Source of the DNA: Ignavibacteriota bacterium
GTDB taxonomy: Bacteria; Bacteroidota; Ignavibacteria; UBA10030; CAVZMI01
DNA: 41,969 nt
Reading direction: 5' to 3'
NCBI GenBank assembly: GCA_963776275.1
Contig: CAVZMI010000002.1
Coordinates: forward strand, 1 to 41,969
Part shown: positions 30,671 through 41,969 of the stretch, in pieces
Layout: each line of letters begins with the position of its first letter
Position numbering within the stretch: position 1 is the first letter of the stretch
Position numbers and translations under genes: made by a program
Notes under the pieces: generated by a model
What the model was told of the DNA's origin: nothing
Databases searched by the model: none
What the model saw: only the letters and a program-made list of their open reading frames with translations

Positions 30671-31434
30671 TGCGGTTTCTTTCCCGGCGATGAGGAATGC
30701 TGGATTTCCCACATTTTCATCATTGTGAGAGCATGTGTAATTGCGTGGATCAGACTCACCATCACCCCGCGAACGCCATCACGATACCCCTTGCGGACAA
30801 TCAACATCTGCAGAAAGGCAAGAAAGGGTTTAAATATCAATCCGGCCGTCGATATCTTCTGCTTTTGATATTTCTCTGCCGCCCGCAGCGAAGAATATTC
30901 GTTCACTTTCTGGATAGTTGTTTTGATACTGGAATGAGTATAATGAATTATATCCCCTACAAGCGTACCTATGACTCCATCGACTTCGAATCTTTCATGG
31001 ACAAGGCGCTCATTCATATGAACCGACTTCCGACGAAACAATCTCAACTGATATCCGGGATACCACCCGCAGGATTTGATCCATTGATTTAGAAAATAGC
31101 TCCGGCGGGGGATCCGGAAACCGTTGTACGGAACATCGGAACTTATAATTTTCAAAATCTCATCTTTCAATTCCGGCGAGATACGTTCATCGGCATCGAT
31201 GCTAAGCACCCATTCATGCGTTGCCTGTTCGAGGGCGTAACGTTTCTGCGATGCGAATCCCTCCCACTTTCTCAAAAATACGTGGGGCGTATATTCACGC
31301 GCAATCCCGACCGTCCGATCATTAGTAATGTTGTTCACGACGATGATCTCGTCCGCCCATCGCACGCTCTCAAGGCACTCACGGATATTTTCTTCCTCCG
31401 CCCCTGCGATGATTGTAACCGACAGTTTATGCAT
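30667..31434 (-). CDS. Glycosyltransferase family 2 (WaaE/KdtX-like)
   Basis: [63 protein letters not shown]. Confidence 0.9.
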
Positions 31435-33856
31435 TTTCCTTCACCACAAAATTCACCAGGCGATCCACGACTACTATACTCTTAACAACGTTCTTCCCAC
31501 GAATATATTGTTGAATTCTCTCATTTGCACGGGCCCGGTTTTCAAGCTCTTCTTTCGTGATTCCGCGGGCGACCTGGATACGGTCACGGATCTTTCCGTT
31601 TACCTGAAGAACAATTTCCACTTCATCTTCCGTGGCAAGTAAAGCATCATATACGGGCCATGTTTCGTAGGCGAGTGTGTACGAATGACCCAGTATCTTC
31701 CACAACTCTTCAGCCAGATGCGGTGCGAACGGAGCCAGGATCAACACAAATTTCTCCATTTCCTTTCGTGGATAGACCTCGCGCTTGTACATTTCGTTGA
31801 TGAAGATCATCATTTGCGAGATCGCGGTATTAAAACGCATCCCATCGAGATCACCGGTCACTTTTTTTATCGTCTGATGAAGAAGTCTGAGCATCTCCTG
31901 ATCGGCGGGGACATCCTTCATCGATGGAGCTATAGCTCCATTTTCGGCGACAAAAAGTCGCCATACCCGATTCAAGAACCGAAACACACCGTCCACTCCC
32001 TGCATGCTCCACGGCTTTGTCTGTTCCAGCGGACCCATGAACATTTCATATAACCGCATGGAGTCTGCACCGTACTGCAAAATCACTTCATCGGGATTCA
32101 CCACATTCCCGAATGATTTCGACATTTTGCGTGAATCCTCGCCCAGGATCATTCCCTGATTCACAAGCTTCAGGAATGGCTCGGACGTCGAAACATGGCC
32201 GAGGTCATAGAGTACTTTATGCCAGAACCGGGCATAAAGCAGATGAAGCACCGCATGCTCGGCTCCGCCGACGTAGAGGTCGACCGGCATCCAATATTTT
32301 TCTTTTTCCTTGCCGACAAATTCCTTATCGTTCTGAGAATCAATATACCGGAGATAATACCAGCATGACCCCGCCCATTGGGGCATTGTATTTGTCTCAC
32401 GGCGTCCTTTCCGGCCTGTTTTCGGATCAACAACATTCATCCATGAGTCCATGAGGGCGAGAGGTGATTCACCCGTTCCGCTTGATTTGTACGATTGAAC
32501 TTCCGGTAGTGTCAACGGAAGGTCGTTTTCATCCAGCGGCTCGATTGTTCCGTCATCATAATGAATGAGAGGGAACGGCTCGCCCCAATACCGCTGACGG
32601 GAGAACAGCCAATCGCGAAGCTTGAAATTGACCGTCCTTTGACCAAGACCTTCTTTTTCCAGCCATGCAACTATTTTTTCAAAAGCTTCTTTGTATCCTA
32701 ATCCATCTAAAAAATCCGAATTTACGCATCTACCATTTTCCGTTTCGACGTATGCCGCCTTTGTGATATCGCCGCCAGAAATTACTTCAACAATCGGGAG
32801 TTTATATTTTTTTGCAAATTCCCAGTCCCGCTCATCATGTCCGGGTACCGCCATAATTGCACCGGTGCCGTAGGAAATGAGCACATAGTCGGCGATCCAG
32901 ATCGGGATTTGTTGCTTATTGACTGGATTGAACGCATAACCTCCGGTGAAGATACCGGTTTTTTCTTTGCTAAGTTCAGTTCGTTCAAGATCGCTTTTCC
33001 GTCTTGCCGAATTAATATATTTCCGGACATCCTTCTGCCGTCCGGCAGCTGTTACCCGTGCAACCAATGGATGCTCAGGTGCAAGCACCATATAGGTTGC
33101 ACCCCAGAGCGTGTCGGGCCTGGTTGTAAAGACACGAAGACGTTCCTGCATACCGACAATCCCGAAATCTACTTCCGCACCGATGGATTTCCCGATCCAG
33201 TTCCTCTGCATCTCTTTGATCGATTCGGGCCAATCGAGACTTTCGAGATCACTCAGTAACCGCTCGGCATAGGCAGTAATTTTCAGCATCCACTGGCGCA
33301 TCGGCCGCCGGATTACCGTGAATCCTTTTTCGATCTGTTCCGGAACTTCCTCGTTGGCAAGAACTGTCCCCAGTTCAGGACACCAGTTTACCGGAACCTC
33401 CGCAAGATATGCCAGTCCATTTTTATACAGCTGAAGGAAAATCCATTGCGTCCATTTATAATATTTCGGATCGGTCGTGTTGACTTCCCGGTCCCAGTCG
33501 TACGAAAATCCGAGTGCCTTAATCTGCCGCCGGAATGTGTCGATATTCTGCTTCGTCGTGACGGCAGGATGGGTTCCGGTCTTGACTGCATATTGTTCAG
33601 CCGGAAGACCAAAAGCATCCCATCCCATCGGATGCAGGACGTTTAATCCGGTCATGCGTTTATACCGTGCAAGAATATCGGTCGCTGTGTATCCTTCCGG
33701 ATGCCCGACATGAAGTCCGGCTCCAGACGGATACGGAAACATGTCAAGGATATAATATTTTTGTTTCGATGGATCTTCGACAGCACGAAAGGTTTTATTT
33801 TCCTCCCAGTATTTTTGCCATCGTACTTCTATTTCCTGAAATGCATATGACGCCAT
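31427..33856 (-). CDS. leuS: Leucine--tRNA ligase
   Basis: [14 protein letters not shown] (HIGH), [56 protein letters not shown]. Confidence 0.98.
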
Positions 33857-33888
33857 AAAAATTCCGAATCCTTACCAACAAATGAATG

Positions 33889-34806
33889 TCAGTTCTGTAG
33901 TGTTCCTTTTTGTTTTAGATATACCTCGGCCGTCAATACACTGCCGAGGCGAAGCTTTTTCATAAGTTCTTCTGCCGATGCGCCCTGTTCGACGAGCATA
34001 AGTGCCGCAGTATGCCGGAGTGAAAAGGCTGTAATTCGTCGAGCTTTACCCTGTTTGACTCCCGATACCTGCAGATAATAATTCACCCGTTCACGAATCC
34101 CACGTGTTGTCATTCTCAGTCCCCGTGTTCGATTTCCGGCGCTGACAAAAAGCGGCCTATCCGGATGTATATCAAGCCGCATTCCAAGATATGCCTTAAG
34201 AGCGAGTGCGACGTCCTGCGGCAGACAGACCCTCTCATCCTTTGTACTTCTTCCTTTTCCCTGAACGGCAAGGAAAGGTTTTCCCTCATCTTCGCCCATG
34301 TCACCGACATCAGCACGAACGATCTCAATCTCGGAAAGTCCGCACCCCAGCATAGCTTTGAGAACCGCATAATCACGGGTTCCCTGTTCTGTATTTACAT
34401 CAACCGATGCGAGCAGACGTTCGATATCCTGGTAACGGATGATCTCGCGCGAGTGATGCATCGGCCGGGCGTTTCCTTTGACTTCTTTTGCAGGATTTCC
34501 TTTGAGCGCACCGGCCCACTCAAGATACCGGCAGAATTGCCGCAGTGCAGTGAGATATGTCGACACCGAGACCGCCGATAACTTTTTACGCCGCGTCAGA
34601 TATTTTTTATATCGCTCGATATCACGGACCCGGAACAGACATCCGCGGTCTTTGTCAAACCAACGGAGAAACTCCCGCAGCGCACGCTCGTATGTCCCTT
34701 TTGTTTCCGGCCGTTTCGCATCAAGCGACCTCACAAATTCATCGAAATATCCTTTAAGACGCTTATGGGATATTCTTACTGCTTTCTGGGGATGATTGTA
34801 AGCCAT
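33889..34806 (-). CDS. Tyrosine recombinase (XerC/D-like) homolog with a degenerate catalytic pocket
   Basis: N-terminal SAM-like domain (T..TY...LREF, STYLTALRQF, NPAK). RDYAVL...GLSEIEI, VQGKGR, PLFVS, TAFSLRHTAA, LRLGSVLTAEVY. Confidence 0.85.
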   Translation of the reverse strand: MAYNHPQKAVRISHKRLKGYFDEFVRSLDAKRPETKGTYERALREFLRWFDKDRGCLFRVRDIERYKKYLTRRKKLSAVSVSTYLTALRQFCRYLEWAGALKGNPAKEVKGNARPMHHSREIIRYQDIERLLASVDVNTEQGTRDYAVLKAMLGCGLSEIEIVRADVGDMGEDEGKPFLAVQGKGRSTKDERVCLPQDVALALKAYLGMRLDIHPDRPLFVSAGNRTRGLRMTTRGIRERVNYYLQVSGVKQGKARRITAFSLRHTAALMLVEQGASAEELMKKLRLGSVLTAEVYLKQKGTLQN

Positions 34807-34840
34807 AGAGTTTTTTGGAAATACTTTTTCTCAATAACAG

Positions 34841-34869
34841 AATTTAAAGAATTATCGAAGGAATGTCAA
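34841..34869 (-). promoter_or_regulatory. sigma70 promoter of the recombinase-leuS operon
   Basis: Minus strand TTGACA-17 nt-TAAATT. Confidence 0.65.
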
Positions 34870-34902: not shown

Positions 34903-34963
34903 GAAATAGAAAGAAGGAGAGTGATTTTTAATGATATATTCACTTATCCAAGGAGGAATGCCC

Positions 34964-35956
34964 ATGAAACAGTGGTTGATTATCCTGGCAACTGGAATAT
35001 TCTTAATTCCGGTTTTTAGCAGTGGAGCACACGATCCAATTCAATCGAAAAAGAGTGCCGTGAAGGTCATAAACGAGAAAAAGGAAAAAACAGGATGGCT
35101 TGGAGTAAGAATTGCTGATGTGACAGAAGAACTCGCCAAAGAGAAAAAGCTCGGAACGGAGGAAGGCGCATATGTCGAGAAAGTCGAAGGTGAAAGTCCG
35201 GCAGATTCTGCCGGTATTCAAAAGGGAGATGTAATAATTGAATTTGATGGAAAGAAAATTTCCGATGCTGCCGATCTCCGAGAATTTGTCGGGAAATCTT
35301 CTCCAGGCGCAGCAGTACCGATTGTGATTCTAAGAGAGGGACAGAAGAAAACGCTCACCGCTACCCTTGGTGCTGCAAAGGAGCACAACAAACAATTAAG
35401 GATTTCTACACCCATGCTGCCGAAACATATACCGTTTATCTGTCACGGCCCTCGTCTCGGCATGAATCTTGAAACACTAAATGAACAATTAGGCGCATAT
35501 TTCGGTGCACCAAATAACGAGGGAGTACTCGTCTGTGAAGTATTCAAGAACAGCACGGCGGAGAAAGCGGGATTCAAAGCAGGAGACGTGATCATCCGTG
35601 CCGGGAAAAAATCCGTCAATGACGTGGGCGATATCAGAAGGGTGTTGAGCAAAGCCGAGCCGGGAAAAACACTCGACTTTGAAATTATCAGGAAAGGATC
35701 ATCCAAAACCATCGCGGGCCCTATCGAAAAATATGAAAAGGAGGATGCTCACGGATATCGTTTTAATATACCCGAATGTCCATCCTGGGAATTCGACCGT
35801 GAATATTTCGACATTCCCGATGCCGACATCGATATTCAGATAGAGAAAGAGGAACTTCCAAAAATACAGGAAGAGATGAACCGGCTACGGGATGAGTTGG
35901 GGAAAATGAAGATCGAAAAAAAGATCAGGGTTTTGGTCTCACCGCGTGATATTTAA
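34964..35956 (+). CDS. Exported tandem-PDZ protein with no protease domain
   Basis: AGGAGG RBS at 34951-34956, signal peptide, GWLGVRI...SPADSAGIQKGDVI and PRLGMNL...STAEKAGFKAGDVI. No trypsin GNSGG motif. Confidence 0.88.
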   Translation: MKQWLIILATGIFLIPVFSSGAHDPIQSKKSAVKVINEKKEKTGWLGVRIADVTEELAKEKKLGTEEGAYVEKVEGESPADSAGIQKGDVIIEFDGKKISDAADLREFVGKSSPGAAVPIVILREGQKKTLTATLGAAKEHNKQLRISTPMLPKHIPFICHGPRLGMNLETLNEQLGAYFGAPNNEGVLVCEVFKNSTAEKAGFKAGDVIIRAGKKSVNDVGDIRRVLSKAEPGKTLDFEIIRKGSSKTIAGPIEKYEKEDAHGYRFNIPECPSWEFDREYFDIPDADIDIQIEKEELPKIQEEMNRLRDELGKMKIEKKIRVLVSPRDI

Positions 35957-40697: not shown

Positions 40698-41969
40698 TTA
40701 CTTTGCTAATTTGTCACGCAGATATTGCAGAAGCTGCGTGTTTGCGACTCGATCCTGTTTCATCGAATCGCGCTCACGGACTGTGACTGTTTGATCCTCC
40801 AGCGTCTGCGAATCGATGGTGATACAGAACGGTGTTCCCGCTTCATCCTGCCGGCGGTAGCGGCGGCCGACGGCACCGCTCTCATCATAGAACACGCGGA
40901 GATGTTTCCGAAGATCCTGCTCGATCGAGCGGGCGAGCTCCGGCATACCGTCTCTGTTCACGAGCGGGAAAATGGCGGCTTTCGTTGGTGCAAGCCTCGG
41001 ATCGAACCGCAAGAGAGTCCGTTGCTCATCTTTTACCATCTCCTCATCGTAGGCATTCACCAGGAACGCCATGAACGAACGGCTTGCACCGGCAGATGTC
41101 TCAATAATAAATGGAGTGTACTTTTCTTTTTTCTCATCATCATAATACTGCATATTCTTACCCGAAAACTGCTGATGGCGCGATAGGTCGTAATCCGTAC
41201 GGTTATGTATTCCTTCGATCTCTCCCCATCCAAACGGGAACAGGTACTCGATATCATAGGCATCTTTTGCGTAGTGCGCAAGCTTACCGGGTTCGTGCCG
41301 ATTAAATTGGAGCCGCTCTTTCTTCATCCCTAATTCGATAAACCATTTTAGACGTTCTTCTTTCCAATAGGCAAACCATTTTTCGTCTGTGCCGGGTCGG
41401 ACAAAGAATTGCATTTCCATTTGTTCAAATTCTCGCGTCCGGAAAAGAAAATTCTTCGTATTGATTTCATTCCGGAATGCTTTCCCGATCTGCGCTATCC
41501 CGAATGGTACTTTCTGCCGGGATGACGATTGAACATTGAGAAAATTTACATAAATCCCCTGTGCAGTCTCCGGACGCAGATATACGACAGCGCTGTCATC
41601 TTCAACCGGCCTACAAATGTCTTGAACATCAGGTTGAACTGCCGGGCTTCTGTAAATTTTCCCTCCGCGGCACATTTCGATGCCTTGCGGCCTTTGTATG
41701 CAGGGTTTCCACACATATTCTCGTCAATCTGGTCGGCACGGAAACGGGCTTTGCACTCTTTGCAATCGACCATCGGATCGGTGAAGTTCTCAACATGGCC
41801 GGATGCTTCCCATACGCGCGGGTGCATTAAGATCGCTGCATCAATTCCCTCAATATCCTCGCGGAATGTCATCGCCTGCCACCATTGTTCTTTGACGTTT
41901 TTCAGCAGCTCGACTCCCAGAGGGCCGTAATCCCAGCAGCCGTTCAAACCTCCATAGATTTCGCTTGAC
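40698..41969 (-). CDS. glyQS: Glycine--tRNA ligase, alpha2 type, 5' truncated, frameshift near 41607 (probably a sequence error)
   Basis: [36 protein letters not shown], then [54 protein letters not shown]. Adding one C at ggc-cg-gtt restores VGPVED. Confidence 0.95.

Follow-up and report, generated by a model that had tools for sequence, protein, structure and literature searches.

A tyrosine-recombinase-like gene family without the first catalytic arginine and with a conserved motif at its promoter: a candidate domesticated DNA-binding protein

Background

A gene for a tyrosine recombinase (YR) is commonly taken as a sign of a mobile element or of chromosome dimer resolution. Here we analyse a gene that encodes a 305-residue tyrosine-recombinase-like protein directly upstream of leuS in a 41,969-nt stretch of DNA from an Ignavibacteriota bacterium (GenBank assembly GCA_963776275.1, contig CAVZMI010000002.1, positions 1 to 41,969 of the forward strand), referred to as the window. 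The protein and its orthologues have lost the first catalytic arginine, and the gene is accompanied by a conserved motif at its own core promoter. Our favoured reading, which we hold with slightly better than even confidence, is that the family consists of domesticated, non-recombining, sequence-specific DNA-binding proteins of YR fold that are probably autoregulated.

The XerC, XerD and XerA resolvases share the two-domain architecture and the length of the window protein, provide its best sequence and structure matches and, like it, are chromosomal; several xer genes also share its place as first gene of a housekeeping operon. The canonical catalytic set of YRs comprises Arg-I, Lys, His-II, Arg-II, His/Trp-III and Tyr (RKHRHY). 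In contrast to XerC and XerD, the window protein is without Arg-I, His-II and His-III, ends in a short tail and scores far below the equivalog cut-offs. A canonical sister clade, at 30-40 % full-length identity, has R164, R286, E161, K189 and an HxR linker in common with the window family but keeps RKHRHY (97 rows) together with a tail of at least 17 residues.

Serine at the Arg-I position of a Bacteroidota YR is known from IntDOT, the integrase of CTnDOT, which is active because a downstream arginine, conserved in the IntCTnDOT subgroup, substitutes for the missing one (excerpts of PMC8138268, citing Kim 2010). The arm-binding domain and the conjugative transposon of IntDOT have no counterpart in the window family, and neither has the substitute arginine. 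TnsF of Tn6022-like Tn7 transposons uses an inactivated YR domain for DNA targeting, a precedent for a YR-derived bacterial protein that keeps DNA recognition and loses recombination; zinc fingers, duplicated core-binding domains, a lost tyrosine pocket and a transposon role are also reported for it (excerpts of PMC10293859). The window family, in contrast, keeps Tyr, Lys and a complete catalytic fold in a stand-alone chromosomal gene, and at the window gene we found neither a zinc-finger N-terminus nor a Tn7 (tnsABC) neighbourhood. In animals, Crypton-derived genes are YR-derived host genes thought to act via DNA binding (excerpts of PMC3212892). As a difference, these genes are eukaryotic, arose independently and carry fusions to other domains. 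XerS of streptococci is catalytically canonical and its DNA site, difSL, is two-armed, whereas the window family has one half-site and no Arg-I. The Xer-like gene xerS is genetically linked to difSL (excerpts of PMC2731167).

Full-text literature searches returned no description of a host-domesticated bacterial YR of this kind, the nearest, TnsF, being transposon-borne. The family, which 60 of the 401 sampled genomes of the phylum carry (about one in seven), amounts to a mutational experiment that nature has run on the YR active site, in which branches shed different catalytic residues while Tyr and Lys stay. It also calls for caution, as such genes should not be counted as integrases in mobile-element prediction.

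Results and discussion

A recombinase fold with an altered active site

Residues were assigned from HMMER alignments of the 305-aa (amino acid) protein to XerA 5hxy and XerD 1a0p. Conservation was assessed in an orthologue set with DNA that consists of the best 80 of 186 relative-encoding stretches in species-representative genomes and 20 loci of other classes within the phylum, 101 genes including that of the window. The gene, its domains and its active-site positions are:

33889..34806, minus strand: coding sequence of the 305-aa tyrosine-recombinase-like protein, ATG start, TGA stop, upstream of leuS
Residues ~14-108 and ~125-297 of the 305-aa protein: core-binding domain and catalytic-fold domain, respectively (Pfam, AlphaFold2, Foldseek)
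34333..34335, minus strand: codon TCC, Ser158 at the Arg-I position; orthologues S 97, T 2, G 1, A 1 of 101, never Arg
34255..34257, minus strand: codon AAA, Lys184, the beta-hairpin catalytic Lys, kept; K in 100 of 101
34024..34026, minus strand: codon TTT, Phe261 at the His-II position; F 40, Y 25, H 17, L 16, N 2, G 1 of 101
34015..34017, minus strand: codon CGG, Arg264 (Arg-II), kept in the window's clade; R 87, T 11, C, V and S 1 each of 101
33946..33948, minus strand: codon CTC, Leu287 at the His/Trp-III position; I 46, L 39, H 16 of 101
33919..33921, minus strand: codon TAT, Tyr296 at the nucleophile position, kept, with 9 residues after it; Y in 99 of 101

Pfam model PF00589 (Phage_integrase) matches residues 123-297 at 51.1 bits (cut-off 27.1), and the SAM-like N-terminal core-binding models PF13495, PF02899 and PF13102 also match. 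According to Pfam and AlphaFold2 the protein is made up of the core-binding and catalytic domains only and is without an N-terminal arm-binding domain. The AlphaFold2 model, built on a 75-sequence alignment, has a predicted local distance difference test score (pLDDT) of 90.3 and a predicted template-modelling score of 0.76; Foldseek matches it to XerA, DNA-bound Cre and XerH (E down to 1e-11, template-modelling score up to 0.72). As modelled, the protein is a two-domain YR with the C-shaped clamp fold. Its best solved sequence relative by HMMER is XerA (5hxy, E 3e-13). Against the equivalog models it stays below the cut-off both for XerC (TIGR02224, 94.4 bits, cut-off 335.15) and for XerD (TIGR02225, 91.3 bits, cut-off 329.6). 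Annotation pipelines label the gene 'tyrosine-type recombinase/integrase' or 'XerC/XerD', and its protein-atlas matches are generic integrase clusters only.

At Arg-I, GLSEIEI of the window protein aligns with GVRVGEL and GLRVSEL of XerA and XerD; FSLRH stands against HVLRH at His-II and LRLGS against LGHAS at His-III. The protein thus does not present the canonical catalytic set, having S, K, F, R, L and Y in its place. Given the codons TCC, TTT and CTC and those that specify Arg and His, two of the three substitutions need two base changes. An earlier note on this DNA, made from the sequence alone, had listed the same three substitutions, the same three remaining residues and two changes requiring two base substitutions each, and the alignments and codons agree with it in every detail.

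The loss of Arg-I is fixed and uncompensated

Arginine was found at the Arg-I position in none of the 101 orthologous genes. A separate homologue search returned 1130 proteins at E<=1e-3 among 3786 candidates; in the query and the best 120 of these, at 51-96 % identity, position 158 is Ser in 121 of 121. Close orthologues with R/H/H, which the earlier note had named as evidence that would speak against it, were looked for among the 101 genes, and Arg-I was lost in every one.

Because IntDOT is active despite its Ser at Arg-I, we searched alignment columns for a substitute residue, comparing the 101 family genes with 97 canonical relatives for positions conserved in at least 90 % of the family and in less than 25 % of the relatives. 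Only E34, G37, S80, P105, S158 and E159 qualified; there is no family-specific Arg, Lys or His among them, and E159 already occurs in the closest of the canonical relatives (P0134 and P0143 read GLREIE). A relocated arginine in the manner of IntDOT was therefore rejected. R164 and R286, which the earlier note had put forward as possible fillers of the Arg-I pocket, also occur in the canonical sister group (...IExxRA..., ...RH...) and are thus ancestral features, not compensations. Both also vary within the family, R164 being Arg in 71 of 81 family genes and R286 Arg in 86 and His in 13 of 101. In Cre, Xer and lambda Int the segment after Tyr packs against the adjacent subunit. All 97 canonical relatives have 17 residues or more there, whereas 51 of 81 family genes have fewer than 17 and the window protein has 9.

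How severe the substitutions are can be judged from saturation mutagenesis of Cre, where, in the excerpts of PMC2943603 used here, Tyr and Lys are the only strict requirements. For each of the arginines one replacement is tolerated, with His robust at Arg-I and Lys active there in vivo only; all but five substitutions of His-II are active, and about 7 % of natural YRs have Tyr at that position; Leu or Met mutants of Trp-III keep weak activity. Phe261 and Leu287, which the earlier note had counted as evidence of inactivity, consequently carry little weight, and only the loss of Arg-I is serious. The case against catalysis is built instead on the uncompensated loss of Arg-I, the loss of Arg-II in a sister branch, the absence of the tail and, as described below, a DNA motif of one half-site, from which we infer catalytic death of the family.

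A motif linked to the gene

Two features upstream of the coding sequence are needed here:

34841..34869, minus strand: sigma-70-type promoter TTGACA-17-TAAATT, 10/12 matches, position kept in orthologous loci
34832..34842, minus strand: conserved motif TTCTGTTATTG (reverse complement CAATAACAGAA), straight after the -10 element TAAATT, putative operator

The earlier note had described the promoter as near-consensus. The 10 matches out of 12 agree with this, but in a single-sequence scan such matches are at chance level (2 sites found, 2.3 expected), and what supports the promoter is conservation: its -35/-10 layout recurs upstream of the orthologue in 42 further loci, that is, in 43 of 74 with the window. 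In these 43 loci a TTGCTT-type -35, a 17-nt spacer and a TAAnTT -10 are followed by CTGTTATTG, 6-110 nt ahead of the start codon. In an 8-mer count over the 250-nt upstream regions of the 74 orthologues, CAATAACA, AATAACAG, ATAACAGA and TAACAGAA stood out, occurring in 41-44 loci. A 52-column matrix derived from 40 other species (window and locus L020 excluded) scores 38.1 bits at the window site, the next best site in the 3.7-Mb genome reaching 12.2.

The motif recurs in other settings. Where the gene is linked to corA the core reads GCAATAACGGt in forward orientation; in another group it reads ccATAACGGacgATG and abuts the start codon; and in the class linked to a 2-oxoacid dehydrogenase E2 gene CCGTTATTGACA overlaps a -35-like TTGACA, always in the intergenic gap, with the 7-mer present in 10 of 11 loci. 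On either strand, AATAACRG lies at most 160 nt from the gene start in 61 of 94 loci, whereas the controls show it in 16 of 4551 tiled windows and, upstream of other open reading frames (ORFs) in the same loci, in 1 of 411 windows.

Different clades have different flanking genes, so what the motif accompanies is the recombinase-like gene itself, a link that is new here. Its orientation flips between clades, and it overlaps the -10/+1 region, the -35 or the start codon; changing direction while it stays on the core promoter, it has the character of a site bound by protein rather than that of a promoter hexamer or an RNA element. Single and asymmetric, it spans about 9-11 nt and matches one YR half-site in size. 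Beside the gene we found no dyad or inverted partner of the motif and no second copy nearby (the genome's dif site was not searched for), and a single half-site without a dyad is a misfit to a recombination core site.

Origin, selection and distribution

With a limit of E<=1e-30, an exhaustive HMMER search of 1.84 billion representatives yielded 158 proteins. Relatives sharing 30-40 % identity are YRs of the canonical type, their signature being GLRxIExxRA ... VQGKGRxxKD ... TAHSLRHTA ... RHxxIxTTMIY. Trees were computed with FastTree on 138 rows, leaving out those shorter than 280 aa, and with IQ-TREE (quick) on 68 rows, namely 37 hand-picked family genes, 29 canonical representatives (9 named, 20 random) and the genome's XerC and XerD as outgroup. 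Both trees place all Arg-I-less proteins on one side of a single branch, and in both the whole group is nested among RKHRHY proteins. Together with the Arg-bearing P0134 (RKNRHY), the Arg-I-less set has a local Shimodaira-Hasegawa (SH)-like support of 98 in FastTree (39 + 1 rows) and an SH approximate likelihood ratio test (SH-aLRT) value of 98 in IQ-TREE (37 + 1 rows). The branch of non-Arg proteins alone has support 74 in FastTree, where it is drawn open, and an SH-aLRT of 98 in IQ-TREE, with P0134 as sister. One change of state accounts for this distribution of Arg-I.

Erosion of the rest of the active site differs between two branches. One kept His-II and His-III and then lost Arg-II (SKHRHY, SKNRHY, then SKHTHY, TKHVHY; SKHTHY in 9, plus variants), while the other, that of the window, kept Arg-II and lost both histidines (SK[F/Y/L]R[L/I]Y). 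Relatives of the canonical representative P0162, at 42-47 % identity, are annotated on plasmids of Flavobacterium, Tenacibaculum, Lactobacillus and Staphylococcus, whereas the window family is chromosomal and single-copy; descent of the family from a simple YR of a plasmid or mobile element would be compatible with these relationships.

Reading frames are intact in all 101 orthologous genes. Nei-Gojobori ratios of nonsynonymous to synonymous substitution rates (dN/dS) range from 0.029 to 0.369 in 24 pairs with dS 0.04-0.96, a sign of purifying selection; the window and L020, for example, have a dS of 0.096 and an omega of 0.17. Over all 181 pairs with dS <1.5, many of them saturated, the median is 0.28. 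That the gene is neither an error nor a case of simple decay, as the earlier note held, is borne out by the intact frames, the low ratios of close pairs and the fixed substitutions.

Family matches at E<=1e-40 occur in 60 of the 401 sampled genomes of the phylum, always in exactly one copy. The three largest sampled families of the phylum have none (0/87, 0/61 and 0/28), and within the window's order strong matches were found in families f1, f3, f7 and f8 and in none of f2, f4, f5, f6 and f9. The window's genome holds seven PF00589 genes, two of which pass the equivalog cut-offs (XerD 357 bits, XerC 343 bits) and carry the full RKHRHY set. With true XerC and XerD in the same genome, the gene before leuS is a third, extra paralogue and no Xer replacement. 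Judged from its distribution and phylogeny, the family is old, vertically inherited, single-copy and chromosomal.

Some observations on individual copies and on other YRs of this genome were made alongside. One in-frame stop (TAA, TAG) is present in 2 of the 60 phylum-sample matches (G009:C1:15128-15937 and G054:C1:50894-51775), the G054 match still being mostly covered by an intact 292-aa ORF (L107). The window's genome has two near-identical integron-integrase/XerA-like YRs, of 311 aa (L003, G000:C23:234271-237759) and 274 aa (L004, G000:C22:8336-11812); the second diverges straight after the catalytic Tyr and is perhaps a repeated element cut by the contig or a rearrangement. A phage-type integrase of the same genome (L006, G000:C29:87213-90662, ORF 955-2034) has Lys for Arg-II (HALKKT) and a weak PF00589 match of 53.9 bits.

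What the family protein may do

On our favoured reading of a domesticated DNA-binding protein, the family protein would keep the full C-shaped DNA clamp and bind DNA sequence-specifically without site-specific recombination. Its candidate target is the single asymmetric CAATAACRG at its own core promoter; as the site overlaps that promoter, autorepression would be the simplest mechanism, possibly accompanied by binding at other sites. The protein would presumably not cleave DNA, and Lys184, Arg264 and Tyr296 may have been kept for gripping the DNA backbone. The earlier note had also proposed a domesticated pseudo-recombinase; its non-recombining DNA-binding role stands, on other grounds, whereas the role it offered as a partner of a Xer-like enzyme finds no support.

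Several points weigh against this reading. Tyr (99 of 101) and Lys (100 of 101) are kept family-wide, even in genes with neither arginine, which pure binding explains only by assumption; these are the two residues that Cre cannot lose (PMC2943603, in excerpt), and their retention is the main unexplained fact. Unlike this Tyr-keeping family, domesticated derivatives of YRs such as TnsF no longer have the tyrosine pocket (PMC10293859, in excerpt). The 9-mer CAATAACRG occurs 76 times in the genome, 11 of these intergenic, and its reversed control 79 times; there is no enrichment, so that no regulon is visible. The 11-mer with at most one mismatch has 138 genome hits against 84 for the control. 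Another regulator could be the binder of CAATAACRG. Erosion that goes further still is suggested by some metagenomic representatives of the same clade that are also without Lys, Arg-II or Tyr (SPSRLY, NTKNEV, TRNKLF), but these are divergent sequences with less certain alignments and no genomic context.

The retention of Tyr and Lys over phylum-level divergence, both being strictly required in Cre (PMC2943603, in excerpt), is what recommends the view that the family is still an enzyme, one that nicks, attaches covalently to, or recombines or resolves DNA at the adjacent motif by means of Tyr296 and Lys184 and without Arg-I. We regard it as unlikely, though a serious contender. It can draw on the Tyr found naturally at His-II in about 7 % of YRs and the weak activity of Leu or Met at Trp-III (same excerpts), on IntDOT, which works with Ser at Arg-I through another arginine (PMC8138268, in excerpt), and on the conserved motif beside the gene, placed as difSL is beside xerS (PMC2731167, in excerpt). 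However, no basic residue specific to the family stands in for Arg-I, and R164 and R286 were inherited from the ancestor and vary (13 of 101 genes have His for R286). A whole branch is also without Arg-II, the post-Tyr tail is short or variable, and what is conserved is one asymmetric half-site, not two inverted arms, with no repeated copies nearby. XerC and XerD are, moreover, already present in the genome.

A more radical version, in which Tyr and Lys would carry out an arginine-independent reaction at the single CAATAACRG (nicking, a long-lived covalent complex or topoisomerase-like relaxation), both arginines having been discarded in parts of the family, strikes us as quite improbable. If true, it would be a catalytic solution not known for the YR superfamily.

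Xer systems can work with only one active pair, and the Xer-like fold of the protein and the presence of XerC and XerD in the same genome suggest a non-cleaving structural partner of these or of another YR, which in a hetero-tetramer would modulate dimer resolution or a Xer-dependent element. This we find hard to credit, since the docking C-terminal segment is truncated or variable, the family is present in only 60 of 401 genomes while Xer is general, the motif is a single half-site tied to the gene's own promoter, and no locus examined shows linkage to xerC or xerD. To a decaying pseudogene, a recent remnant of a prophage or integrative element, or a sequencing or annotation artefact, which the weak Pfam score (51 bits) and the three non-canonical positions out of six might suggest, we give next to no credence, as it is refuted by conservation (101 intact frames with dN/dS 0.03-0.37, the same substitutions across genomes, a pLDDT of 90.3, conserved synteny and promoter).

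Genomic neighbourhood

Downstream of the gene lie:

33857..33888, minus strand: 32-nt spacer between the recombinase-like gene and leuS, without a terminator-like site
31427..33856, minus strand: leuS, 809 aa, downstream neighbour, adjacency kept only in the window's clade

Because the 32-nt gap holds no terminator-like site, co-transcription of the gene with leuS is likely. Beyond leuS follow genes for a GT2 glycosyltransferase, an MsbA-like ABC transporter and a Wzy_C protein and, later, NAD kinase. The position 32 bp ahead of leuS, with envelope genes and nadK downstream, had been read correctly in the earlier note, as had the lack of att sites and cargo: the gene is chromosomal with housekeeping neighbours, no mobile-element genes flank it in the window, no locus examined shows integrase-type cargo, and a search around the gene for inverted repeats or an invertible segment gave three short chance-level pairs only.

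In the nearest clades leuS is the next gene on the same strand in 62 of 75 loci with at least 400 nt downstream, and it is also next in 11 of 12 loci from relatives, the twelfth of which ends early. Gaps in leuS-linked loci are mostly 25-154 nt, with eight of 269-899 nt; one sub-clade (L075, L077, L081, L082, L088, L089, L090 and L097) has gaps of 512-899 nt. Among the 13 exceptions, the downstream ORF is corA in 4 of 4 tested and four more have a similar-sized ORF there; corA is immediately adjacent, with a 4-nt overlap with the gene's end where both ORFs are called (e.g. L063, L096). In loci from other classes leuS is adjacent in 0 of 20. There, the gene lies directly downstream of a 2-oxoacid dehydrogenase E2 gene in 8 of 20, and the remaining neighbours include corA, lexA, dus, sua5, a peroxiredoxin gene and more. 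The synteny with leuS that the earlier note had proposed to check thus holds in the nearest clades and fails elsewhere. The linkage is lineage-specific, the general setting being housekeeping operons, and therefore provides no argument for a function tied to leuS; functional coupling to leuS as a general feature was rejected.

A conserved neighbour encoding a PDZ protein was likewise considered and rejected, since only the window and its two closest relatives, L020 and L021, have it divergent from the gene, and other PDZ matches are DegP-like ORFs about 3 kb off. The divergent gene of the window (34931-35956, plus strand) encodes a secreted protein with two PDZ domains and without a protease domain. 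A gene for a YdjM-family membrane protein adjoins the recombinase-like gene in three loci of different clades (L063:3391-3969, L113:5219-5704 and L115:5120-5557), and in one locus lexA lies directly upstream with a 4-nt overlap (L112:5361-6092); these neighbours may hint at a DNA-damage connection.

Two further observations concern aminoacyl-tRNA synthetase genes. In L015, L018 and L019 the LeuS match breaks off at residue ~146 and resumes at ~148 after about 160-190 nt, which suggests an insertion in LeuS in those lineages. In the window, glycyl-tRNA synthetase (40698-41968, minus strand) is split into two overlapping ORFs in different frames, 41546..41968 with the N-terminal part and 40698..41714 with the rest, which looks like a frameshift near 41.55-41.7 kb and is possibly an assembly error.

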